This document shows positions 2,441-39,875 of a stretch of DNA of 64,000 nt, piece by piece (position 1 is the first letter of the stretch; every line of letters begins with the position of its first letter). The translations under genes and the position numbers were made by a program. Source of the stretch: an uncultured Bacteroidota bacterium. GTDB lineage: Bacteria > Bacteroidota > Bacteroidia > UBA4408. A model generated the notes under the pieces. The model ran no database searches. It saw only the letters and a list, made by a program, of their open reading frames with translations, and was not told the origin of the DNA. The stretch is taken from assembly GCA_903840505.1 (NCBI GenBank), contig CAIMGI010000187.1, forward strand, positions 18,812 to 82,811. The letters are read 5' to 3'.

Positions 2441-3238
2441 TTATTTTGTAAGTACATCATTTTTGTACTTTTCTGTTTTTGTAGCTTTTCCTTCTTTCGA
2501 AAACTCCTTCCAAGCGCCTTCTTTTTTATCCTTTACATATTGTCCTTGCAATTTTACTGTTTTGCCGTCTTCGAAAAACTCTCTGTAAAGGCCTTCCATC
2601 ATATTGTTTTTGTAGGTAGTTTCTGTTTCAAGCGAACCATCCTTGTAAAATGATTTTTGAACCCCTTCTAAATTGCCTAATTTGTAGGTGTATTCAATAG
2701 ATGGTTTTCCTTCCTCGTAATACCAAAAAGTAACACCGTCTCTTTTGTCATTAATGTAAAAAGATTCTTCTTGTAACTTATTCGATTGGTAATATACTTT
2801 TTTAGTACCATTCAATTTGCCGGCTTTATACATAGCCTCTTGCTCAACTTTACCACTGCTATTGAATCGCCTTAATTTGCCTTCCAATAAATCATTTTTA
2901 TAATATGCCTCTTTTGAAATATAGCCATTGTTTTTAATATCTAAGCTAATACCATCGCGTTTACCAAAAACAAATTCTTCAACGGACAGCAATGTTTTAT
3001 CTTCTTGGTACGATCGCCAAACGCCATTTTTAACATTGTTCAAATACCTTCCTTCAAAAGTAATTGAGCCTATTTTTTCTTTCCAGGGTCCGGTTTTCTG
3101 GCCATTTGCATCTTTGTTATTGTACAAAGAATCTTCTTTTGCTTGTTCCTTTGTTTTAGCCAATGGGGCTGCTTGTTGCGCTTGAGCAAACACAATAGAA
3201 CAACTAATAAGAATAATAGTTGAGAATAACTTTTTCAT
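2441..3238 (-). CDS. Secreted MORN-repeat protein (YwqK-like)
   Basis: N-terminal signal peptide, followed by repeated ~23-aa G-x-W/Y-x-x-Y-Y-x-N/DG-x-L units (for example EGKLRRFNSSGKV, EGLYREFFEDGK) typical of MORN/YwqK repeats. Confidence 0.6.
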   Translation of the reverse strand: MKKLFSTIILISCSIVFAQAQQAAPLAKTKEQAKEDSLYNNKDANGQKTGPWKEKIGSITFEGRYLNNVKNGVWRSYQEDKTLLSVEEFVFGKRDGISLDIKNNGYISKEAYYKNDLLEGKLRRFNSSGKVEQEAMYKAGKLNGTKKVYYQSNKLQEESFYINDKRDGVTFWYYEEGKPSIEYTYKLGNLEGVQKSFYKDGSLETETTYKNNMMEGLYREFFEDGKTVKLQGQYVKDKKEGAWKEFSKEGKATKTEKYKNDVLTK

Positions 3239-3330
3239 AATTTTTTGTATTTATTGTTTTTCTATTCGTGCGAATTTACGAATAAATAGCTGTTTTTTTA
3301 CGTTAATTTCTGTTAAGAAATGCAGGGCAA

Positions 3331-29798: not shown

Positions 29799-30848
29799 AT
29801 GGTGTTATCTACAAAAGTAAGCATAATTTCAAGTTTAAGAAAGGGATTGCCCCGAATATCGGTTTTTATGTTTTTGCTGTGTTGTTCGTGCAAGCAAAAT
29901 AAGCTGGACGTAAACGTTTCCAACATAAAACTTTCGGTTGATTGCAAGCGTTTCGATTATGATTTGTTTAGCCTCAGATGCCCAGTAGAAGCTGCCGGTA
30001 TAAATACTTTAAGAAATAAGTACGGAAATTTTGTTGACCGATTTGGTGCAAACATCATAAAAATTGGTTCTCCTGAGTCGCCTTCTTATGCAGCTAATTT
30101 GAGTAATTTTTTATCCGACAACGATATGCGTACTGTTTATGGGGATGTTAAAAGTCAATACCCAAATACAGATGAATTAAACAAAGAGCTTACCGATGCT
30201 TTTAAACATTACAAATATTATTTCCCAAATAAAACTATTCCGCAGGTAGTAACCTATGTTTCGGGTTTTAATTATGCCATTGTTGCCGATGATACTACGT
30301 TGGGAATTGGCTTGGATATGTACTTAGGAGCAGATTATAAATATTACCAACTGATGCAGTTGCCAAAATATAGAACAGCATTAATGCGCAAAGAGCGCAT
30401 TGCCATTGATGCGCTCAAATCGTGGATTTCAACTGAGTTTGAAGCCGACATTACAAAGACCGATTTGCTTTCACAAATTATTCACGAGGGTAAAATTATG
30501 TATGCCTTGGATGCTTTGTTTCCTGCTGCCCACGATTCACTTAAAATGGGCTATTCGAAAAAGCAAAACGATTGGGCAAAAGTGAGTGAAGCTCAAATAT
30601 GGGCATACTTTATTGATAAAAAATTATTGTTCTCCACCAATTATGGAGAGAATATGAAATTCCTGAACGATGCTCCTTTTACTTCGGGTTTACCACGCGA
30701 TTCGCCTCCTAAAATTGGCGTGTGGTTGGGTTGGCAAATAGTGAGGGCCTATATGAATACTAAATCCGACATTTCGTTGGAAGCATTGTTTACTGAAAAA
30801 GACGCACAAAAAATACTTTCACAATCAAAATACAAACCTGCTAAATAA
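29799..30848 (+). CDS. gldB: Gliding motility lipoprotein GldB
   Basis: A ~330-aa lipoprotein (lipobox LLCCSC) immediately upstream of a gldC-like gene, as in the F. johnsoniae gldB-gldC operon. The start is uncertain because the gap to the divergent gene is only ~21 bp. Confidence 0.6.
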   Translation: MVLSTKVSIISSLRKGLPRISVFMFLLCCSCKQNKLDVNVSNIKLSVDCKRFDYDLFSLRCPVEAAGINTLRNKYGNFVDRFGANIIKIGSPESPSYAANLSNFLSDNDMRTVYGDVKSQYPNTDELNKELTDAFKHYKYYFPNKTIPQVVTYVSGFNYAIVADDTTLGIGLDMYLGADYKYYQLMQLPKYRTALMRKERIAIDALKSWISTEFEADITKTDLLSQIIHEGKIMYALDALFPAAHDSLKMGYSKKQNDWAKVSEAQIWAYFIDKKLLFSTNYGENMKFLNDAPFTSGLPRDSPPKIGVWLGWQIVRAYMNTKSDISLEALFTEKDAQKILSQSKYKPAK

Positions 30849-30856
30849 AAGCTATA

Positions 30857-31195
30857 ATGAAAACTTCCGAAATAAATTTCACGATTAAATTAGATCAAAA
30901 TAACCTACCCGAAAGCATAGATTGGGAAGCAACCGATTCGGGTGTGGATGGTAAAATACCAAGCAAAGCAGTAATGTTAGCCGTGTGGGACCCAAAAGAA
31001 AACAACACCTTGAAAATAGATTTGTGGACAAAGGATATGATGGTGGATGAAATGAAATTGTTTTTTCATCAAACCTTGCTAAGTATGGCGGGCACCTTTG
31101 AACGTGCTACAGGCGAAGATAAAATGGCGGGAGATATGAAGGATTTTTGCCAGTATTTTGCCGAGAAAATGAATTTGTTGGAGAAGAAGAATTAG
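30857..31195 (+). CDS. gldC: Gliding motility-associated protein GldC
   Basis: 112-aa cytoplasmic protein. Its conserved blocks (IDLWTKDMMVDEMK, FFHQTLLSMA, DFCQYFAEK) are characteristic of GldC, and it lies 8 bp after gldB. Confidence 0.65.
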   Translation: MKTSEINFTIKLDQNNLPESIDWEATDSGVDGKIPSKAVMLAVWDPKENNTLKIDLWTKDMMVDEMKLFFHQTLLSMAGTFERATGEDKMAGDMKDFCQYFAEKMNLLEKKN

Positions 31196-31356: not shown

Positions 31357-31430
31357 TGGAGAATATCGGATTCGAACCGATCACCTCTTCACTGCCAGCG
31401 AAGCGCTCTAGCCAAATGAGCTAATTCCCC
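31357..31430 (-). tRNA. tRNA-Ala (anticodon GGC)
   Basis: The reverse complement folds as a canonical 74-nt cloverleaf, with acceptor GGGGAAT/ATTCTCC, anticodon loop CTGGCAG and a T-arm with TTCGAAT. CCA is not encoded. Confidence 0.85.
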
Positions 31431-32135
31431 TTACAATCACCGAAGCTTTAGCATAGGTGGTTTATAGTTATTATAAAGAGCCCTAATGATATTGCACTTA
31501 ATTTGCCCAAAAGTATATAAAATATTGGAATTTAACGAGATTTCGAAATAAACGTAAGTGCTTGTATATTTGGTTTCCTGTACAACGTTCTGTCTATAAA
31601 AACACTCGAATTCCACATTCCATAACAGTTCATCGGAAAGGGCAACGACTCCCCCAATACAGTAAAAACCAATAATCGCTTTTGCACATAATGTCGGAAA
31701 TTGTGGTTGCCTAAAATCAAACACTCGAGCAAGAGTAGAACACGTATTGGGATTTATGGAACAAATTACGAATTGGTTATTTATACACTCAGTAGGAATA
31801 TTACGAGCAACTGGAATAACAGGGCTTATCAATTTAACCTGCAATTTATTTAGGTATGAACAAACTAAATAAGACTTTAAGCGCAATACCTTGTCGGGTA
31901 GAGAGATAGTTAGGCAGGTAAATAGATAGGGAAATTATGACGATGAAAGAAAAAACATTGTATTGTTGAAAAACAGATTACAAAAAATCGTTTAACGGTG
32001 CCTGCAATTCTTGTTCAAATCTATAAAAAAGAATACTTTAAGCCAATCTGTATGAGATTTTTTATTATATTTAGCTTTTATTTTTTAAAAGGCAAAGCAT
32101 TTTCAGTTTGCATAAATAATAAAACGGTAGGGTAT

Positions 32136-33125
32136 ATGACAAAAGTTTATCTTTTATTGTTATCAATTTATTTCCTTTCTATCACAACTGTTGTGGCGCA
32201 GGATTCTATAAAAAAGGCAGCTCCCCAATCTGCCGGTGTTGTAGCACAGGATTCTATAAAAAAAGGAGCACCCCAACCTGCCGATACTTTAAAAAAATCT
32301 ATTGTTCCCGGTTCAAGTAAAACTAATGTACCTGACACTACCGTAAAAAGGGGTTCAACTATTGATGCTGGAATAGGGGTTGCTGTTTCGCCAAGCACTT
32401 TGCGCTTTAATTTGAAACCGGGTAATGCCCAAACAAAAACCATTAAGGTTACTAATGATACTAAAGTAGCGAAGAAATTTAATGTTACCGTACAGGAATT
32501 TAGAGCAAGTGAATTAGGGAAACCCGTTTATTCAAAAATCGGGGAAAGTAAATTTGGTCTTGCAAAATGGTTAAACATTTCTCCCTCCTATATTGAATTA
32601 AGAGCAGGTGAGAAAAAAAACATTAATGTGCAGTTGGATATACCCGATGTTGATAGTGCGGCAATAGCAGGTTGGGTAATTATAGCCATTGATGAAGTAC
32701 GCGATAGAGCCCCTTTAGACCAGTCATCAACGAATAAAAACACCCTTGCGCTTGGAATTGTTCCTTCCATAGGATTTGGAGTGTATGTATTTCAAAATCC
32801 TCCCGAAGTAAATAGCCATAATGTTGAAATTACAAGCTTTAAGTATAACGAAACGGGGAATAAAAGAATTGTTGAAATGGAATGTAAAAATATAGGAAAC
32901 GGAATAGGTTTTTGCAGTAATTATTTGGAGCTAATTAATTTAACGACAGGTGAACAAACAAAGTTGCCAATAAAGCAGGTAACAATACTACCAGGATTTG
33001 TAAGAAAGTTTTATTTTGAGTTGTCTTCTACTTTAAAGCCTGGCAAATACTCGGCTGCGGGGGTCCTTGATTTTGGAAGCAAAGAGTATGTACAAACTGC
33101 TGAGCTAGAATTTTTAATACAATAA
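32136..33125 (+). CDS. Secreted two-Ig-like-domain protein, putative periplasmic chaperone of the adjacent fibre operon
   Basis: Signal peptide (MTKVYLLLLSIYFLSITTVVAQ) and a duplicated 16-aa linker. Two ~110-aa beta-rich domains follow, with PapD-like strand patterns (VSPSTLRFNLKPG..TKTIKVTN....FNVTVQEF). The chaperone role is inferred. Confidence 0.4.
   Translation: MTKVYLLLLSIYFLSITTVVAQDSIKKAAPQSAGVVAQDSIKKGAPQPADTLKKSIVPGSSKTNVPDTTVKRGSTIDAGIGVAVSPSTLRFNLKPGNAQTKTIKVTNDTKVAKKFNVTVQEFRASELGKPVYSKIGESKFGLAKWLNISPSYIELRAGEKKNINVQLDIPDVDSAAIAGWVIIAIDEVRDRAPLDQSSTNKNTLALGIVPSIGFGVYVFQNPPEVNSHNVEITSFKYNETGNKRIVEMECKNIGNGIGFCSNYLELINLTTGEQTKLPIKQVTILPGFVRKFYFELSSTLKPGKYSAAGVLDFGSKEYVQTAELEFLIQ
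32198..32293 (+). repeat. 48-bp direct tandem duplication encoding VVAQDSIKK(A/G)APQ(S/P)A(G/D)
   Basis: gttgtggcgcaggattctataaaaaaggcagctccccaatctgccggt / gttgtagcacaggattctataaaaaaaggagcaccccaacctgccgat. Confidence 0.8.
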
Positions 33126-33276: not shown

Positions 33277-34074
33277 ATGAAAAAAATAATTTTTATAGCT
33301 TTAGTAGCAGCAGGGTCAATTCTAGCATCTAATTCTTATGCGCAGTTAATAGATGAAAAAAACGTAACTATTACAATGGATTTGCAACCAATTTTGCAAT
33401 TGAACATGACTACTCCTGATCAAATTGATTTCGTATTTGATGAAATTCCTGAATACATTGGAGGTATCACTAAATACGCAGGAACTGTTCTTAAAGTAAG
33501 CTCTTCTGTATCTTGGGATCTTTATGCAGCAGCTAGTTCCAATGCTCATTTGGGCGGTGTAGGAGATATTTGGGATCAACAAGTTATTTATGGTGCAGGT
33601 ACTTCTGCTGGTGCGAGAAGTGACTTACCCCTAAACTTGCTGGAAATGCATCAATTTGGACCAAACAATTTTCCTGGTACAGCCACAAACTTTGCCGACT
33701 ATAGCGGAGCATTCCGCCCGGTATCCGGTTTAGGTACTAACGATGGACAAAATAACGTGTATGTAAGCGCAGCTGGTACACCTTATGTTTCCCCTCCTGA
33801 TGGTGAGAAATACATTAATGGCGGTGAAGCTGCAATAGCAACAGCTTTGGTACCAGGGGGGTCTTATTTGACAACACTTTTTCCAGTTGGAACAAGTGAT
33901 TACTATTTTGTAATTGACTACCGTGTCCTTCCGGGCTTACCTGCTATTTTTCCACTTGCTTCTGATAATACAGGTGCTGTAAATGACTTAGTAACTTCAG
34001 GTGCTGTAGGTGATTATGCACAACCTGGTGTTTACACTATGGATGTGAAATATGTTTTAATTGAAAATCAATAG
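33277..34074 (+). CDS. Secreted fibre-subunit-like protein A (paralog of next gene)
   Basis: Signal peptide. The N-terminus has alternating hydrophobics (NVTITMDLQPILQL), a conserved IDFVFD...IGGI block and a C-terminal DYRVLPG...VKYVLIEN beta-strand. Length is 265 aa. Confidence 0.45.
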   Translation: MKKIIFIALVAAGSILASNSYAQLIDEKNVTITMDLQPILQLNMTTPDQIDFVFDEIPEYIGGITKYAGTVLKVSSSVSWDLYAAASSNAHLGGVGDIWDQQVIYGAGTSAGARSDLPLNLLEMHQFGPNNFPGTATNFADYSGAFRPVSGLGTNDGQNNVYVSAAGTPYVSPPDGEKYINGGEAAIATALVPGGSYLTTLFPVGTSDYYFVIDYRVLPGLPAIFPLASDNTGAVNDLVTSGAVGDYAQPGVYTMDVKYVLIENQ

Positions 34075-34134: not shown

Positions 34135-34758
34135 ATGAGGCTGTTAATAGTAATTCTCTTTTTAATAGTGACCAAACCTGTTTTTTCTCAATGCCCCCTT
34201 GTGGTTACTGCAGAATGTGCAGGAGTTCCTATGAGTGGCATTATTGTAAGTGCCAGCCAATTAGAAAATATAGATTTTACATTTGATAGTTTTTCAAAAA
34301 TAATTGGCGGTATCGGCATGAGTGGAAAAACACAATTGCGAGTGAAAGTACAAGCAAATACAGCTCTTTGTAAGTGGGGCTTGTATATGACCATTGATAA
34401 TATTGGCGCAGTAGGTGCAACTGATTGGAGTAGCAATGTTATATACGGGACAAGTGGTAACCCCCCCGGGTTGGATTTATTAAAAGTAGAAGTATATAAT
34501 GGCTGTAACACACCCATTAATAATCGTGTTTATCAAGCGTTTGTTACCAATGCGCAAATGATACCTATAATAGAAGATCTAGGGGCCATTAATGTAGCGG
34601 GTTCTTGTGTCACTAATGTGAATGGGCCTGGCAATTATATAACAAATTATAATGAATTCTCTTTTACGGTTGATTATCGAATTATTCCTTCCCCATCTTT
34701 AAATATAACACCTGGTCAATATTCAGTAAAAGTCCATTTTTGTTTAGTAGAAAATTGA
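34135..34758 (+). CDS. Secreted fibre-subunit-like protein B (paralog of previous gene)
   Basis: Signal peptide and four Cys residues. It shares the IDFTFD...IGGI block and the C-terminal DYRIIP...VKVHFCLVEN strand with the previous gene. Length is 207 aa. Confidence 0.45.
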   Translation: MRLLIVILFLIVTKPVFSQCPLVVTAECAGVPMSGIIVSASQLENIDFTFDSFSKIIGGIGMSGKTQLRVKVQANTALCKWGLYMTIDNIGAVGATDWSSNVIYGTSGNPPGLDLLKVEVYNGCNTPINNRVYQAFVTNAQMIPIIEDLGAINVAGSCVTNVNGPGNYITNYNEFSFTVDYRIIPSPSLNITPGQYSVKVHFCLVEN

Positions 34759-34762
34759 GTTG

Positions 34763-37700
34763 ATGGAGAAGCTGCTAAATTCAAATATCAAAACACACAC
34801 TTTAGGAAATTTGCTATTGTATAAATACATATTTATCCTTCTTTTTTCATTATTTATTCTTCCTTTTGAGATGAGATCTCAAACACAAAATCAAAACAAT
34901 AAAAAGGTTACTGCTACTTTCAGCTCGCAAGTAATAGAGTTAAAAACAAAATCAGAATTGATATCAAATGTTTTGAAAGTAAAAAACATTAACGGTACTC
35001 CAAAAGATTTTTACATAGACGTTAATTGTCCGAACGATTGGAAGGTTCTTAATTCCACAAAACAGATATATACTGTTAATGCGGGTGACTCCATATACAT
35101 TCCCGTACGCGTCATTCCGTCTCTTTTAACATTTAAAGGCGGTTCGCTGTATATGATAAATGTTTTTTTAATTGCAACTATTGATGGAAAGCAATTGGAT
35201 AATACTATGTTTAAAATTTCTAAACCAAGCAAGAGGAGTTGGGCATTGGATGTATTACCCGAATCCCGCATTTATTTTTTAAATGATCACAAAAAAGCAC
35301 CATTTAGTGTTTCTGTTGCTAATAATGGCGAAGATAAAGAGGATATTAGTCTTTTTATAAATCATGTTGGACAGTCGCTCAATATTGCAGATACAGCAGG
35401 CCAAGAAGTTAAAAAACGTTTTTTTGACATTACGCTGAACCCTTCAAATGACACAACGTTAAAATTTTTGGCAGATATAAAGGATGTGCCTCGAAACTTT
35501 AAACGAGTTGATCTGGATAACCATAACCCGAAAGAAGCTTTTGAAACTAGAAAGTATACAATCTTTTTTAGAGCAACGGAACCCAAAACACGAAAAATAA
35601 AAAAAAGCGACACTAAAAAATCAGTTGCCGTTGCAACTAAAGTCGTCTCCGTAACTAAAAAAATTAATAAAACTCATGCTGTAAGGTACAGCAAAACACT
35701 TGACTTTATTCGCCTCTCAGATAATGTAATTGTAAACAATTATCGTAGCTCAATTATCCCAGTTTCAGTAGAAGCTAATTTTCATAATATTTTTGGTTTT
35801 CAGCCCATTGGCAATACAATTATTCGTTCAAATAAATTACTTAGCCCCACTTCGAGTTTTAACTTTTTATTACAAAATAATTTTTCCTATTATTCTCCTG
35901 AAAAATTTCTTGCCAGGGGAAACAGCTCATTTTATTTAGGTTACTATTCTAAGCATTGGGATTTTAGTGTAGGAACAAATGCAGGTTTGATGGGTATTGG
36001 AGGCTCCACAGCTATGAATAGCGGCAATGGATCTGCAGCAAGTTATCATACAAAAAGGTTCAGAGCATCGGCTTTTTATAGTAGAGGCCCTATCTTAGGG
36101 TCACCTATAAACCATAGTTATGGAGCAGGGGTAAGTGGCAATTTTTTTAATAGACTTACCTTATCAGCAGGCTCAAGTCAAAGTCGATCTTTGATTCTTC
36201 CATCGGATGCCAGTTTTGTTTTTGCACGAGCCAATTACAGAGCAAATAAGTTTTTGAGTTTATTTGTTGGTTATAATTATCGTGTATCAAGAGCTAACAT
36301 AAACGCCCCTGGTCAGATTACTACAGAAGGCAATTTTTTTAATGGCGGCTATAGTGCATTATTCCTTAAACAAAGGCTGAACCAATCAATGTCTGCCAAT
36401 TTTGGTGATACGTATTATGCGAATGTAAGGCTCAGATCAAAATTTTCTATTGTTTTATCTAATAAGTTTTCTCCTAAGTCAAGAGCCTACTTGCTTCGTA
36501 TGCGTAACAGTTATTTTCAGTCGCAAGATTCACTTAAGGGGTTTTCGAAATACGATCGCTTAGCATTCAGCAACTCTTTTTCTTATAGTAAATCAAGCCA
36601 AAAGAAAGGATCTTTAGTTCCAAATTTTTTTTATAATTATTCTCAACAAGCGCTTGCTAAAATGCATTTTAGAGGCATAGGGTTCAATTCGTTTTATGGT
36701 AATCAAGAAAAGAACACGAGAGCTTCTGTTTCATCAATTGTAGGATATAATCGTTACATAGATAGCGCTATTACAAAAGAGTTGTTTAGTTTACAATTTT
36801 ATGGAATGGTTCAATGGCAAACATTCACGATGAATGCAAATTATTATTATGGTCCGGCCGGAATTTATGGTGCCAAAAGAGTATTGTATAGCACCAATAG
36901 TTATCCTCAAATTTTTAGAACATCTCTTTCATACGAATACTTATTTAAAAATAGACGTTTTGTATTAAGGCTTCCCCTTAGTTACGCCTATAACAATACT
37001 GCTTTTTCTCATAATATAAATATTAACCCACAAGTATATTTGTTTACTTATAACGATTGGCGCCTAAGATTGGATTTGAATTATTCGTACTTAAGAAATA
37101 ATCTGCAAAAACAATTTCAATACACTTCACAATCAACATTTGAGGATGATTTAGATAAGCCAACGGTGGGCAATGTCTTTACTATTGGTGTAGGAATAAA
37201 AAAAGATTTTGGCATTCCTATACCTAAAAAATGGTCGAAAATAGCATACGGCAGTCCGACATTTTTAGCGTTCCTTGACTTTAATGGCAATAGGGTAATG
37301 GATAAGGAAGAGGCTCTTTTAGAAAACATTGTGATTAGGGTTGATAATTATGAAATATTGACCAATGAAAAAGGTTCGGCCTTTTTGACAAATATGCCTG
37401 CCGGAAGATATTCTTACAATGTATTTTCGTTGGTTGACCTTGGCGGATGGTTTTATCAACATTTGGATAGTTTAGATATTGACGGCAGAAAAATATATTA
37501 TATCCCCTATACTCGCGGAGTTAAAGTTTTTGGTAATGTGGTTATTGACCGAGAAAAATATTCGAGCGATGTTGTAAAAGATTTAGATATTTCTCGCATA
37601 AAGCTGTCTGTTATAGACACTGCTGGCAAAACACAAACCACATTAACAAATACAAAAGGGGAATTTTATTTTTATGTGCAATATGGAACGTATGTATTAA

Positions 37701-38290
37701 GTATGGATCAAAATGTATTGGGCGAAAAGTTTACATTGGCCCAAAATAATATTAAATTAGAGTTGGAGGAAGGTATGGATAGTTATTTTAACTCATTCTA
37801 TGTGATTGAAAAACACAGAAAGGTCAAGAAAAAAATATTCGGAGCTGATGGGAAATATGAATTGGTAGAGGTGGATCCTGAAAATAATAAAGCGTACCCA
37901 GCCAATAACAACAGAAATCCAAACAATAAGATTTTAAATTTTGATCAAAAACAAAAACAATTGGATTCATTAATTACCCAATTGAATATGTTAAATAATA
38001 AATCACCTAACCGTGCAGATCTACGTTTAATAGTAATAATTAAAACACAAAAATTGGCAACAGAATTAAGTTATGTTTTTTATATAAAGCTTGCCGAAGT
38101 GCCAAAAGGCGTTGCTCCCGAAGCTGCTTTGTCTGATTTGTTGAAGAAAAACAACTTGAAAGGATCGTTAAATATGGATGGTTCAATTACCTATACTGCC
38201 GGGGACTTTAAAACGATAGCCGAGGCTGAAAAAGAATGTTTGAAATATATGAAAGCGGGGCTTACAAAAGCGACCATTGAAAAAAAATGA
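34763..38290 (+). CDS. Large outer-membrane beta-barrel protein with usher-like domain order (N-terminal Ig-like domain, barrel, two carboxypeptidase-regulatory-like domains, SPOR-like C-terminus)
   Basis: The N-terminus has a hydrophobic signal or anchor. The central ~450 aa are Y/S/N/G/F-rich with alternating amphipathic strands (SFYLGYYSKHWDFSVGT, LSLFVGYNYRVSRANI). Two CarbopepD_reg-like beta-sandwich domains follow (IVIRVDNYEILTNEKGSAFL..., IKLSVIDTAGKTQTTLTNTKGEFYF). The C-terminus looks like a SPOR/RNP domain (YTAGDFKTIAEAEKECLKYMKAGL). Confidence 0.45.
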   Translation: MEKLLNSNIKTHTLGNLLLYKYIFILLFSLFILPFEMRSQTQNQNNKKVTATFSSQVIELKTKSELISNVLKVKNINGTPKDFYIDVNCPNDWKVLNSTKQIYTVNAGDSIYIPVRVIPSLLTFKGGSLYMINVFLIATIDGKQLDNTMFKISKPSKRSWALDVLPESRIYFLNDHKKAPFSVSVANNGEDKEDISLFINHVGQSLNIADTAGQEVKKRFFDITLNPSNDTTLKFLADIKDVPRNFKRVDLDNHNPKEAFETRKYTIFFRATEPKTRKIKKSDTKKSVAVATKVVSVTKKINKTHAVRYSKTLDFIRLSDNVIVNNYRSSIIPVSVEANFHNIFGFQPIGNTIIRSNKLLSPTSSFNFLLQNNFSYYSPEKFLARGNSSFYLGYYSKHWDFSVGTNAGLMGIGGSTAMNSGNGSAASYHTKRFRASAFYSRGPILGSPINHSYGAGVSGNFFNRLTLSAGSSQSRSLILPSDASFVFARANYRANKFLSLFVGYNYRVSRANINAPGQITTEGNFFNGGYSALFLKQRLNQSMSANFGDTYYANVRLRSKFSIVLSNKFSPKSRAYLLRMRNSYFQSQDSLKGFSKYDRLAFSNSFSYSKSSQKKGSLVPNFFYNYSQQALAKMHFRGIGFNSFYGNQEKNTRASVSSIVGYNRYIDSAITKELFSLQFYGMVQWQTFTMNANYYYGPAGIYGAKRVLYSTNSYPQIFRTSLSYEYLFKNRRFVLRLPLSYAYNNTAFSHNININPQVYLFTYNDWRLRLDLNYSYLRNNLQKQFQYTSQSTFEDDLDKPTVGNVFTIGVGIKKDFGIPIPKKWSKIAYGSPTFLAFLDFNGNRVMDKEEALLENIVIRVDNYEILTNEKGSAFLTNMPAGRYSYNVFSLVDLGGWFYQHLDSLDIDGRKIYYIPYTRGVKVFGNVVIDREKYSSDVVKDLDISRIKLSVIDTAGKTQTTLTNTKGEFYFYVQYGTYVLSMDQNVLGEKFTLAQNNIKLELEEGMDSYFNSFYVIEKHRKVKKKIFGADGKYELVEVDPENNKAYPANNNRNPNNKILNFDQKQKQLDSLITQLNMLNNKSPNRADLRLIVIIKTQKLATELSYVFYIKLAEVPKGVAPEAALSDLLKKNNLKGSLNMDGSITYTAGDFKTIAEAEKECLKYMKAGLTKATIEKK

Positions 38291-38315: not shown

Positions 38316-39875
38316 ATGAAAAACACACACGTATGGTTCCTCCTCTTATTGCTTTTTACTAAAGTACTAGTTGCGCAACCTCAAAAGCCTATTAAGTTTA
38401 AAAAGACCACTTCCGGTTTGGAGTATGCTATCATTAAAAAAGGGCAAGGCAAAAAAGCGAAAATCGGGAATAGGATTTTTTTGAATTATTTTTCTAGAAT
38501 AAAACTCGATAGCATTTTTGATAGTAACAACAATAAATATCCATACAGTTTTATATTAGGACAAGGTGATGTTTTAAAAGGTTGGGACGAAGGTATTGCA
38601 TTGTTGAGTGAAGGGGATAGTGCTGTTTTTCGCATTCCTCCACAATTGGCATTTGGTGAAAAGAAAATTGCTAAGATACCTTCTAATACTACTTTTTTGC
38701 TTGAAGTAAAGATTTTAAAAGTAGAAGAAGCATTTTACGATGGAAAACAAAAAGACACTGTACAGCTTGCCCTTGGGTTAAAAAAGATTTTGATAAAAAG
38801 TAGCACCGGTAAACCTGCTAGGTCATTCATGGGTGTAACATTAAATTACACAGGATATTACATTAATGACAAAAAACAAAAAAGAATATTCGAATCTTCT
38901 TATGTTACTGGCTTGCCCGCATCTTTTCAATTGGGAACAGAGCGCTTTTTGAAAGGGCTGGATATTGGTATAGCAGGAATGAAGATTGGGGAAAAATCCA
39001 TTTTTATTCTTAGTCCTGAAATGTCGTATGGAACTAAACCTGCAGGAGAGGTGCCTCTTGGAGCAATAGTCTATTTTGATATAGAATTATTGGCAGTAAA
39101 CAATCCATTTTTTGATGCAAGCGGAAAGGATACTATTAAAACAAAAAGTGGCTTAGCTATTATAGTTATTGATCCGGGGGCAGGACCGTTAATAAATAGA
39201 GGAAATTATATTACGATGCATTATACAGGTTTTTTAAAAAATGGAGAAGGAAATAAAATAATATTTGATAATACCATTGAGAGGAAACAACCGGTTGTGT
39301 TCAGGCCAAATTCCCCCAACTTATTAAAAGGATGGACAGAAGCCTCTTTATTGCTTCGCAAAGGGGCAAAAGCCATTTTAATAATCCCTCCTCAATTGGC
39401 TTACGGAGACATAGAGTTATCAAGGGTTCCAAAAAACTCAACGGTTTTTTTTGATATTGAAATAACGAATGTAAGCGAACCATTTTTTAATGTAACCAAT
39501 AAAGATACGGTTACATTGAGCTCAGGCTTAAAATATATCGTTGCAGCCTATGGAGATGGAGTGCTACCAAATCCAATAAAAGCTTTTACGGGGAAAGTTG
39601 TGGTTGTAAATTATGTGGGATTTATTTTAGACTCTTTACGTAAGCCCATTGTTTTTGATACATCAATTGAAAGAGGTAACCCGCTTGAATTTAAACTAGG
39701 AGCAGGTAAAGTAATTAAGGGGATGGAAGAGGGTGTTTTAGGTATGCATATGGGAGAAAAAAGAAGATTGATTATTCCTGGGAACTTAGGATACGCAGAA
39801 AAAGGTATCCCACCGCTTATACCATCCGATGCTACACTTTATTTTGATATTGAATTAGTGAAGGTGTTAAAGTAA
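38316..39875 (+). CDS. Secreted FKBP-type peptidyl-prolyl cis-trans isomerase with four tandem FKBP domains
   Basis: Signal peptide, then four ~100-aa units each with FKBP signatures (GW.EG...L..G....IPP.LAYG......IP.N.TL.F.IEL). It lies 25 bp downstream of the fibre operon on the same strand. Confidence 0.75.
   Translation: MKNTHVWFLLLLLFTKVLVAQPQKPIKFKKTTSGLEYAIIKKGQGKKAKIGNRIFLNYFSRIKLDSIFDSNNNKYPYSFILGQGDVLKGWDEGIALLSEGDSAVFRIPPQLAFGEKKIAKIPSNTTFLLEVKILKVEEAFYDGKQKDTVQLALGLKKILIKSSTGKPARSFMGVTLNYTGYYINDKKQKRIFESSYVTGLPASFQLGTERFLKGLDIGIAGMKIGEKSIFILSPEMSYGTKPAGEVPLGAIVYFDIELLAVNNPFFDASGKDTIKTKSGLAIIVIDPGAGPLINRGNYITMHYTGFLKNGEGNKIIFDNTIERKQPVVFRPNSPNLLKGWTEASLLLRKGAKAILIIPPQLAYGDIELSRVPKNSTVFFDIEITNVSEPFFNVTNKDTVTLSSGLKYIVAAYGDGVLPNPIKAFTGKVVVVNYVGFILDSLRKPIVFDTSIERGNPLEFKLGAGKVIKGMEEGVLGMHMGEKRRLIIPGNLGYAEKGIPPLIPSDATLYFDIELVKVLK

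Follow-up and report, generated by a model that had tools for sequence, protein, structure and literature searches.

A conserved Bacteroidota gene cassette encoding a TLP-1-type pilin and a predicted usher-like outer-membrane barrel with a SPOR-fold tail

The barrel gene and its conserved cassette

The window analysed here is a 64,000-nucleotide stretch of contig CAIMGI010000187.1 from an uncultured Bacteroidota bacterium. Its plus strand carries, at 34763..38290, a gene that starts with an ATG at 34763 and encodes a protein of 1175 aa, referred to as the barrel protein in the following. The frame is open without interruption (34760/34763..38290), and the C-terminal strings quoted in an earlier, sequence-only reading of this DNA were found in its translation. 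The ORF is real and not a chance frame, as the identical 1175-aa protein was called on three independent metagenome contigs and as an exhaustive HMMER search revealed a large family, comprising 494 representative clusters (defined at 50% identity) at E<=1e-3 and 136 at E<=1e-30. All family loci found belong to Bacteroidota, and the family itself is without annotation. Neither Pfam nor NCBIfam assigned a family to the barrel protein, and phmmer and hmmsearch comparisons of the protein and its family with PDB sequences gave no relevant match. Word-index protein searches yielded nothing beyond the query and repeat proteins without relation to it, a failure that probably results from the low-complexity, Ser/Asn-rich barrel; the family was recovered by the exhaustive HMMER search only.

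The barrel gene is preceded by three genes, giving the cassette order p375 - p265 - p207 - barrel gene. This full order was identified in 48 of the 61 loci with enough upstream DNA, and in 7 further loci each of the three partner types is present, with an additional copy or in another order, hence 55/61 when variants are included. The cassette occurs across Flavobacteriales, Bacteroidales, Chitinophagaceae and other MAGs, every locus being Bacteroidota, whereas the genes flanking it are not conserved. A tie to the upstream genes gldB and gldC was rejected, as neither is conserved beside the cassette, and a scan of the locus for sigma-70 promoters and terminators was uninformative.

The first gene, p375 (32136..33125, plus strand), encodes 329 aa if translation starts with the ATG at 32136 or 375 aa with a GTG at 31998. 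Its product combines a signal peptide with a low-complexity linker and a pair of beta-sandwich domains, the C-terminal half resembling a C2 domain. For p375 itself only sub-threshold Ig-fold matches were obtained from Pfam and NCBIfam; a scan of 31 family members revealed WxLIP_PGBD in 23 (best 3.4e-9), Cep192_D6 in 15, MSP in 8 and PapD_N in 2 (9.8e-5). A comparison with E. coli FimC by hhalign was not significant. Taken as a two-domain Ig-fold protein whose family matches PapD-like and ASH fold families, p375 is a candidate periplasmic chaperone.

TLP-1-type pilins upstream of the barrel gene

The second gene, p265 (33277..34074, plus strand, 265 aa), lies two genes upstream of the barrel gene and encodes a major pilin of the TLP-1 type, which carries a type I signal peptide. 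With phmmer, its residues 24-263 match the PDB chains 9ikk_A (E 8.6e-45, chain residues 2-236) and 9ikj_A (E 1.6e-43), the identity to the TLP-1 fibril protomer being 43% over 230 aligned positions, and the p265 family profile matches this protomer at E 8e-68. The 31 members of the p265 family are 49-60% identical to p265, with one outlier at 40%, and their mature N-terminus is nearly invariant; in p265 it holds the conserved donor strand QLIDEKNVTITMDLQPILQLNM. Both this mature N-terminal donor strand and the C-terminal strand are common to p265 and TLP-1. That the genes adjacent to the barrel gene encode TLP-1-type donor-strand-exchange pilins is the most informative fact about the locus, and the sequence-only reading had missed it.

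The fibrils TLP-1a and TLP-1b (PDB 9ikj, 9ikk; CryoSeek) are known from cryo-EM structures obtained straight from pond water (PMC11494351). They assemble by donor-strand exchange via the N-terminal strand in an n+4 mode, yielding a fibre 8 nm wide, and the study named no producer organism, gene context or assembly machinery (PMC11494351). The window represents the locus of a TLP-1 relative and not that of TLP-1 itself; even the closest natural sequences to TLP-1 among 5.8 billion proteins reach an identity of no more than 57%. P0208, a natural TLP-1 relative (54% identical), resides in the same cassette, together with a barrel gene of 1183 aa. In open-access papers and preprints no follow-up work on TLP-1 genetics was found.

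The third gene, p207 (34135..34758, plus strand, 207 aa), encodes a Cys-rich pilin paralog, as identified by homology to p265 (BLASTP E 4e-8; family profiles by hhalign 99.5%, E 3.7e-22). Here, a short and variable N-terminal segment replaces the conserved donor strand, the motif DEKNVTxTMDLQP is absent from the p207 family alignment, and conserved cysteines are present, three of which (C28, C79 and C124) are invariant. p207 is thus regarded as a candidate minor or tip subunit. Pfam and NCBIfam hold no family for p265 or p207. Both signal peptides are of type I, end in AQ or SQ and are without a lipobox. Assignments as type IX secretion substrate or type V pilus were rejected, as the pilin C-terminus is the fibre's last structural strand and a lipobox is lacking.

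Downstream, 25 bp past the barrel gene stop, a gene at 38316..39875 (plus strand) encodes a four-FKBP-domain periplasmic-type prolyl isomerase (Pfam FKBP_C match over four stretches, E 3e-87; NCBIfam PRK10902 and BamJ matches). It follows the barrel gene in 5/78 loci and is also found in the P0208 context; being linked in the closest relatives only, it may be accessory and not part of the core cassette.

Domain layout of the barrel protein

The layout described here is based on an AlphaFold2 model computed with an MSA (pLDDT 85.0, pTM 0.66), while the single-sequence model (pLDDT 29.5) was of no use overall; all coordinates refer to the plus strand. The protein starts with a signal-peptide-like hydrophobic helix (residues 1-40, 34763..34882; model helix 15-35), and the family consensus likewise opens signal-like. 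Two Ig-like beta-sandwich domains follow (residues ~46-273, 34898..35581; strands 49-153 and 160-272, pLDDT ~85-95), which would be periplasmic. This region gives a weak Pfam NPCBM_assoc match, its domain 1 resembles domain 1 of p375 (hhalign 70%, E 4e-5), and Foldseek with the model also returned ASH/SPD-2-type matches. A Lys-rich linker of low confidence (residues ~274-306, 35582..35680; pLDDT <50 over 280-303) leads to the large beta-barrel of ~26 strands (residues ~307-820, 35681..37222). Within the model, ~26-27 beta-strands were identified between residues 308 and 819, all connections between them are <=21 residues long, a plug-domain insert is absent, and the most conserved motif of the family, IKKDFGIPIP, locates to the last barrel strand. 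The large outer-membrane-type barrel proposed earlier for residues 330-800 is thereby borne out at the level of the model, which predicts beta-strands throughout this region and has FimD and PapC as its best PDB matches in Foldseek (~800-860 columns, E 1.2e-12 to 2e-9).

The barrel is followed by two tandem prealbumin/CarboxypepD_reg-like beta-sandwiches (residues ~831-1040, 37253..37882; strands 833-929 and 947-1037), which stand where ushers have CTD1 and CTD2 and are the best-conserved part of the family. They agree with the two tandem carboxypeptidase-regulatory-like domains that had been expected here, as besides the modelled fold a Pfam CarboxypepD_reg match under the gathering score is found at 844-887 (E 3.8e-5). 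A weak Pfam SpaA/NOMO match lies at 923-982, and a NOMO2 match of the family profile among PDB sequences falls on these domains as well. Next comes a helical hairpin (residues ~1058-1102, 37934..38068; model helices 1060-1079 and 1085-1102) with the conserved motif 'LDSLI..LN', whose positions L8, D9, S10, L11 and N16 do not vary across the aligned tails; similar motifs are also present in the other tail types of the family.

The C-terminal SPOR-fold tail

Residues 1103-1175 and the stop codon (38069..38290, plus strand) form a divergent SPOR/RNP-fold domain, modelled with pLDDT 88-94. The elements E1106-1113, H1121-1128, E1133-1136, E1142-1149, H1152-1164 and E1171-1174 yield the beta-alpha-beta-beta-alpha-beta order, so that the modelled tail is neither disordered nor helical only; helix and strand elements over 1106-1174 are found in the single-sequence model as well. 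At profile level the tail is homologous to SPOR tails. Window-type and SPOR-type tails, the latter being family tails mostly from the Pfam-SPOR-positive set, align by hhalign with 97.6% and E 4.3e-12 over 70 columns, and an HMM of the SPOR-type tails matches residues 1105-1172 (21.2 bits, E 1.9e-5). The SPOR-type tail profile in turn matches the solved SPOR domains of CwlC (1x60, E 1.5e-7) and FtsN (1uta, E 0.041). The suggestion of a SPOR-type domain made in the sequence-only reading therefore holds, both for the fold and via the Pfam-positive tails of relatives. With known SPOR domains (PF05036; FtsN, DamX, RlpA, CwlC) the tail shares a ~70-residue RNP fold that terminates a low-complexity or helical linker, the homology running via the family tails that match Pfam SPOR and via the solved domains of CwlC and FtsN. 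Unlike these, it lies below Pfam SPOR detection (0 families at E<=0.01), carries a Lys in place of the strand-1 Gln, and is attached to an outer-membrane barrel, whereas known SPOR domains reside on an inner-membrane anchor or a lipoprotein.

Among 44 family tails, Pfam identified SPOR in 19 and LysM in 3, while more than half of the barrel family members have no tail. Two conclusions were drawn: the machine does not depend on a wall tether, given the tailless majority, and wall attachment was argued to be the selected function, given that SPOR and LysM, which are unrelated peptidoglycan-binding modules, occupy the same position. Outer-membrane barrels tethered to peptidoglycan, of the OmpA type, are not rare; the earlier description of an unusual combination hence stands for a peptidoglycan-binding-type tail on an usher-like protein and falls for tethered barrels in general.

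In SPOR domains the conserved strand-1 Gln (FtsN Q251 / RlpA Q270) contacts the glycan, and the contacts are otherwise mainly main-chain, supplemented by a basic patch (PMC6895207). In the window protein Lys1109 occupies this Gln position, which is variable among window-type tails (N/Q/V/R/E/K), and the profile of window-type tails alone matched no solved SPOR domain. Together with the failure of Pfam SPOR to detect the tail and with the conserved upstream hairpin, which could mediate oligomerisation, this would fit an RNP-fold domain that has lost peptidoglycan binding and serves as a protein-protein module for oligomerisation or partner docking, the barrel not being wall-tethered in this organism. 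The missing Pfam match, the Lys and the tailless majority of the family likewise speak against a wall tether. However, the homology to SPOR tails spans the whole domain, its position equals that at which relatives carry SPOR or LysM tails, and a mostly main-chain contact with a basic patch is compatible with a tail as Lys-rich as this one (16% K), which makes a loss of binding appear less likely than its retention. Peptidoglycan binding by the tail is accordingly kept as a putative function.

Relation to ushers and other known systems

The barrel of fimbrial ushers has 24 strands, and its plug domain is an insert between strands 6 and 7. The usher-type domain arrangement is present in the barrel protein, with two Ig-like domains (49-272), the barrel and two beta-sandwiches (833-1037), and as for ushers its gene is grouped with donor-strand-exchange pilin genes. 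At sequence level, Usher (PF00577), PapC_N (PF13954) and PapC_C (PF13953) gave no Pfam/NCBIfam match at E<=0.1, the family profile found no usher among PDB sequences, and hhalign of the family with E. coli FimD returned a probability of 0.3%. The term usher-like is thus supported by the predicted architecture and the gene context, not by sequence. Compared with FimD and PapC, the protein has ~26 strands and no plug, two N-terminal Ig-like domains where ushers have one NTD, an added helical hairpin and peptidoglycan-binding-type tail, and Bacteroidota as hosts, and strand donation in the TLP-1 fibre is n+4 rather than n+1 (PMC11494351).

Type V pilins are lipoprotein precursors which are processed by a protease and are not known to use an usher. 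Type V pili (FimA/Mfa1) share the phylum and strand-exchange polymerisation with the present system; p265, unlike their subunits, has an N-terminal donor strand (PMC11494351) and a signal peptide of type I, and it is accompanied by a conserved barrel gene of its own. The WxL/Csc clusters of Firmicutes have the WxLIP_PGBD (= DUF916) domain and small secreted paralogs in common with the cassette, but belong to monoderms and lack an outer-membrane barrel, and no Pfam WxL match was obtained for p265 or p207. To our knowledge, Bacteroidota are known for type V pili and not for chaperone-usher pili, and in open-access papers and preprints we found no report of a Bacteroidota chaperone-usher system or of wall-fixed or wall-positioned ushers.

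A proposed pathway for pilus assembly

Considering the cassette as a whole, we regard the barrel protein as probably the outer-membrane platform, an usher in function, for assembly and secretion of a Bacteroidota pilus with a TLP-1-type major subunit. The decisive evidence for this is gene context: as the barrel gene lies in a conserved cassette with a TLP-1-type pilin, it probably encodes the missing TLP-1 assembly machine. In the suggested pathway, p265, p207 and p375 would initially be exported to the periplasm by Sec, where p375 would hold the unpolymerised subunits. The Ig-like and post-barrel domains may then receive and hand over subunits, similar to usher NTD and CTD1/2, and the subunits would pass the outer membrane via the ~26-strand barrel. 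Polymerisation would proceed by N-terminal donor-strand exchange, as seen by cryo-EM for TLP-1, to give the 8-nm tubular fibre. The hairpin and the SPOR-fold domain may tether the machine to the periplasmic peptidoglycan and would thereby hold it in place or direct it to a site, possibly to septal or polar wall processed by amidases.

Several observations count against the platform reading, namely that neither ushers nor PapD/FimC chaperones show sequence likeness to the proteins of the cassette, that the plug is absent and the strand number differs, and that a single classical usher does not obviously explain n+4 exchange and the 8-nm width (PMC11494351). An n+4 mode would need the growing base to hold several chaperone-capped subunits at the same time, and the mechanism is therefore expected not to be exactly that of FimD/PapC. 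The platform might act as an oligomer, joined by the conserved helical hairpin. As a tentative extension, the cassette may represent an undescribed Bacteroidota-wide pilus pathway, independent of chaperone-usher systems or diverged from them beyond recognition, in which a plug-less, ~26-strand and often peptidoglycan-anchored platform builds a four-start tubular TLP-1 fibre by n+4 exchange.

The barrel protein could alternatively be a wall-anchored base or anchor of the fibre, or a sheath around it in the manner of MtrB-MtrA, and no catalytic usher, with subunits polymerising without chaperone-usher handover, for example by the self-assembly at the surface that chaperone-free donor-strand systems use. 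MtrB sheathes a decahaem cytochrome, MtrA. MtrB-type barrels (PDB 6r2q_B) do have 26 strands, but MtrB is without flanking Ig-like domains or a peptidoglycan-binding tail, and no cytochrome genes were found at the window locus. This alternative appears unlikely, since p375, with its two Ig-fold domains and PapD-like family matches, is conserved in the cassette, since the N- and C-terminal beta-sandwich domains are best conserved and mirror the usher NTD and CTDs, and since the anchoring tail is missing in most family members. A transporter or porin role in which the barrel would serve another substrate (glycan, nutrient) and be merely co-located with pilin genes is highly improbable given the four-gene order kept across orders with unconserved flanks, the lack of a TonB plug or TonB box region and of a Pfam TonB_dep_Rec match, and the lack of polysaccharide genes within the cassette.

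Implications

With the window and 78 related loci, the family of TLP-1 pilins is assigned to Bacteroidota, and a structure so far orphaned becomes a genetic system that can be tested. The loci point to a chaperone-usher-like pathway in this phylum and raise the question of how n+4 strand exchange would be supported through an usher-like pore. The way SPOR and LysM tails stand in for each other suggests attachment to, or positioning by, the cell wall for some of these machines.

The barrel protein and its predicted architecture

The barrel protein is encoded where the sequence-only reading had placed it (34763-38290, + strand), the frame being open throughout from either TTG (34760) or ATG (34763) to the stop codon at 38288-38290, whereby the ATG start yields 1175 aa, and the C-terminal peptides quoted at that time are found in the translation. 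Three independent metagenome contigs (~47 kb) encode the identical protein with the same neighbours; from its G+C content of ~35% and from gldB and gldC ahead of this gene region, the window is assigned to a Bacteroidota genome. No family was assigned to the protein by Pfam or NCBIfam, the sole Pfam signals being sub-threshold ones for CarboxypepD_reg (residues 844-887, E 3.8e-5), SpaA/NOMO (923-982) and NPCBM_assoc (81-120). The search of PDB sequences gave no match and a word-index protein search returned the query itself and no other match. Exhaustive phmmer against 1.84 billion representatives identified 494 clusters at E<=1e-3, of which 136 reach E<=1e-30, every family member being named 'hypothetical protein'. 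The conserved core of this family corresponds to residues ~20-1030; 56 of the 104 near-full-length representatives end directly after the second prealbumin-like domain, and in the remaining 48 a C-terminal tail follows, its length ranging from 60 to about 500 residues. Two homologs, P0061 (1418 aa) and P0065 (1564 aa), possess 600-700 additional residues N-terminal to the usher-like core, alignment of the barrel protein beginning at their residues ~619 and ~709, respectively.

Modelling with AlphaFold2 and a 71-sequence alignment gave a pLDDT of 85.0 and a pTM of 0.66 (single-sequence pLDDT 29.5). In this model, a signal-like helix (15-35) is followed by two beta-sandwiches (49-155 and 160-272), a Lys-rich linker of low confidence (280-303), about 26-27 long strands in uninterrupted succession (308-819), two further beta-sandwiches (833-929 and 947-1037), a helical hairpin (1060-1102; window 37940-38068) and finally a beta-alpha-beta-beta-alpha-beta unit (1106-1174, pLDDT 88-94). 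The outer-membrane barrel claimed earlier for residues ~330-800 is thus supported by strands predicted across 308-819, and the C-terminal region was likewise modelled as the folded mixed unit that had been proposed for it, being neither disordered nor helical only. Within the barrel run all inter-strand connections comprise <=21 residues, three short helices are present, and the plug insert that is the hallmark of ushers is absent.

Foldseek comparison with the PDB identified FimD (3rfz_E) as the best match (E 1.2e-12, 861 columns), next to which other FimD and PapC complexes (E 1e-12 to 2e-9) and, after the ushers, TonB-dependent receptors, LptD and MtrB (E 1e-7 to 1e-5) were found; TM-scores were low because the domain arrangements differ. 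Given this ranking, the barrel as modelled is an outer-membrane barrel of generic type and very large size, closest to a 26-strander, and the predicted usher likeness resides in the whole architecture, not in the barrel by itself. A sequence-level link of the family to ushers was found neither with the family profile against the PDB nor with hhalign against FimD. The protein departs from the usher family in sequence, plug and strand count.

A conserved cassette with a TLP-1-type pilin

Three genes precede the barrel gene on the same strand, namely p375 (32136-33125), p265 (33277-34074) and p207 (34135-34758), the last one ending 4 bp ahead of the ATG. Scanning 185,579 species genomes with the conserved motif of the family revealed 78 loci. 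Of the 61 loci whose upstream sequence extends over 3.6 kb or more, 48 show exactly the order p375-p265-p207-barrel; all three partner types occur with an extra copy or swapped order in 7 further ones. The three most divergent loci (L067, L068 and L080; 24-26% identity) carry the p375 homolog downstream of the barrel gene, not upstream, whereby in L080 a pilin homolog comes next, a gene-order variant of the cassette. All 78 loci read as Bacteroidota MAGs (Bacteroidia, Flavobacteriales, Bacteroidales, Salibacteraceae, Crocinitomicaceae, Vicingus, Chitinophagaceae, Lentimicrobiaceae), including the one labelled Bifidobacteriaceae (L015, CAZHTC010000003.1), a complete cassette of the Bacteroidota type lying on a contig of 347 kb, for which a binning or labelling error is likely.

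The identity of p265 is documented by its match to two solved fibrils, 9ikk_A and 9ikj_A (PDB names 'TLP-2' and 'TLP-1', 16 chains each), obtained with the family profile (E 8e-68 and 2e-66) and with the single sequence (E 8.6e-45 and 1.6e-43; residues 24-263, identity 43%). Both entries represent the TLP-1a/b fibrils described by CryoSeek, 8-nm tubules out of Tsinghua Lotus Pond water that are assembled by donor-strand exchange, the Ig-like fold of each protomer n being completed by the N-terminal strand contributed by protomer n+4 (PMC11494351). The source organism was not identified by the authors, who had no matching metagenome or mass-spectrometry sequence; the terms usher and chaperone occur in the reference list only, and operon and Bacteroid- nowhere (PMC11494351). 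Later CryoSeek papers hold nothing further on the TLP-1 producer or its assembly genes. In the p265 family, the mature N-terminus QLxDEKNVTxTMDLQPxLQL is almost invariant and coincides in the alignment with the start of the TLP chains, where the donor strand is formed. Searching 5.8 billion proteins with the TLP sequence revealed natural relatives of <=57% identity, one of which (P0208, 54%) is encoded in the gene string 303-265-248-1183-FKBP, the same cassette. The p207 family is paralogous to that of p265 (family profiles match at 99.5%, E 3.7e-22) and is devoid of the p265-type donor segment, its N-terminus being short and variable; of its several conserved cysteines three are invariant. 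Hence, we infer p207 to be a minor subunit, perhaps tip or cap.

The first gene product, p375, begins with a signal peptide, which is followed by a duplicated linker of low complexity and by two beta-sandwich domains. In its first part (31998-32400, + strand) the start is ambiguous (GTG 31998, 375 aa; ATG 32136, 329 aa), other assemblies calling 329 or 357 aa, and the Pro/Lys/Ser-rich linker following the signal peptide contains the tandem duplication AQDSIKKAAPQSA / AQDSIKKGAPQPA. Among 31 family members, Pfam matches were obtained for WxLIP_PGBD (23), Cep192_D6 (15), fn3_5 (15), MSP (8), OCRL ASH (5) and PapD_N (2, best 9.8e-5), of which MSP, ASH and PapD_N are families of the PapD-like fold group. 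The C-terminal half is similar to C2 domains, domain 1 is similar to the first of the two N-terminal domains in the barrel protein (hhalign 70%, E 4e-5), and hhalign against E. coli FimC was not significant. Taken together, the candidate chaperone role of p375 is a reasonable inference and not a result.

Downstream, 25 bp past the barrel stop, a gene begins (38316-39875, + strand) whose 519-aa product comprises four prolyl isomerase domains of the FKBP type and also matches the BamJ family (NCBIfam, 132 bits, cutoff 100). It follows the cassette in only 5/78 loci, plus the P0208 context, and may assist, as an accessory factor, in folding either the proline-rich pilins or the barrel. The gliding-motility genes gldB and gldC (29799-31195, + strand) are located immediately ahead of the cassette region, their linkage to the cassette recurring in 0/78 other loci; the window's flanking genes in general (gldB/C, TPR protein, DPP-IV) are not conserved around the cassette elsewhere. 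A tRNA gene on the opposite strand (31357-31430, - strand; Rfam 59.4 bits) is separated from the cassette by some 700 bp devoid of a convincing ORF (31431-32135), a 149-aa ORF therein (31437-31886, - strand) looking spurious, and this stretch is likely the promoter or regulatory region of the cassette.

The C-terminal tail

The earlier assignment of the tail to the SPOR type stands at profile level and in the fold, but not in the direct Pfam test: of 44 family tails, 19 contain SPOR (PF05036; best E 3.5e-11), 3 contain LysM repeats (best E 9.9e-41), and the tail of the barrel protein itself matched no Pfam family, SPOR included. Its divergent tail type is common to P0006, P0014, P0026, P0058, P0072 and P0088, and the profile of these tails matches that of 22 SPOR-type tails of relatives (hhalign 97.6%, E 4.3e-12) over 70 columns, corresponding to residues 1103-1174. 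The HMM of the SPOR-type tails matches residues 1105-1172 (21.2 bits; E 1.9e-5 for a search of 1356 ORFs), and their profile matches the solved SPOR domains of CwlC (1x60, 1.5e-7) and FtsN (1uta, 0.041). Judged from profile homology to SPOR-type tails and the predicted fold, the tail is a divergent SPOR domain.

SPOR and LysM domains are peptidoglycan binders. In P0009, P0067 and P0100, two to three LysM repeats take the position of the SPOR-like domain, meaning that, going by sequence, a different peptidoglycan-binding module was swapped in. The presence of SPOR or LysM at the same position in different members is the best argument for wall attachment as the putative purpose of the family tail. 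As to this particular tail, the strand-1 Gln (FtsN Q251, RlpA Q270), the one side chain conserved across SPOR domains (PMC6895207), is replaced by Lys1109, a position variable among tails of this divergent type. As SPOR-glycan contacts are mostly formed by the main chain and a basic patch (PMC6895207), peptidoglycan binding is plausible despite Lys1109 and considered at least as likely as not.

The SPOR-type tail is found on only 13 of 79 barrel genes (the window-identical locus and the 78 species-representative loci) and therefore is an accessory module. In L005, an ORF of its own (286 aa; 2451-3311, - strand) that ends in a SPOR-type domain (E 7e-16 against the tail HMM) adjoins a cassette with a tailless barrel gene, so that the tethering function could here be split between two genes. 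The helical motif 'LDSLI..LN' of the hairpin is invariant in the divergent tails and recurs, sometimes twice, before classic SPOR tails (P0005, P0008, P0011, P0013); it may serve as coiled-coil or oligomerisation element.

Proposed mechanism

The periplasm is the site of action of SPOR and LysM domains, which would place the C-terminal half of the barrel protein there; given the even strand number of the model, the N-terminal domains are predicted to be periplasmic as well, which is the usher topology. Folded proteins fit inside barrels of MtrB size. The suggested mechanism assumes that p375 would deliver subunits to the periplasmic Ig-like domains of the barrel protein, that these subunits would traverse the wide barrel and that they would polymerise through donor-strand exchange, whereby the machine would be held at the cell wall by its tail and, if SPOR specificity is kept, would be biased toward amidase-processed septal or polar wall. 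The n+4 exchange implies four donor-strand-linked protofilaments, which, speculatively, might be fed by an oligomeric platform formed via the conserved 'LDSLI..LN' hairpin. The descriptive claims on protein, family, tail and cassette are made with high confidence; the role of the barrel protein as putative pilus assembly platform is fairly likely.

In its proposed working, the TLP-1-type cassette is alike to the chaperone-usher pathway. A pilus type known for Bacteroidota is the type V pilus, from which the TLP-1-type system differs. In the most far-reaching reading, rated somewhat less likely than not, the cassette would represent an independent pathway for pili, polymerisation following a different logic.
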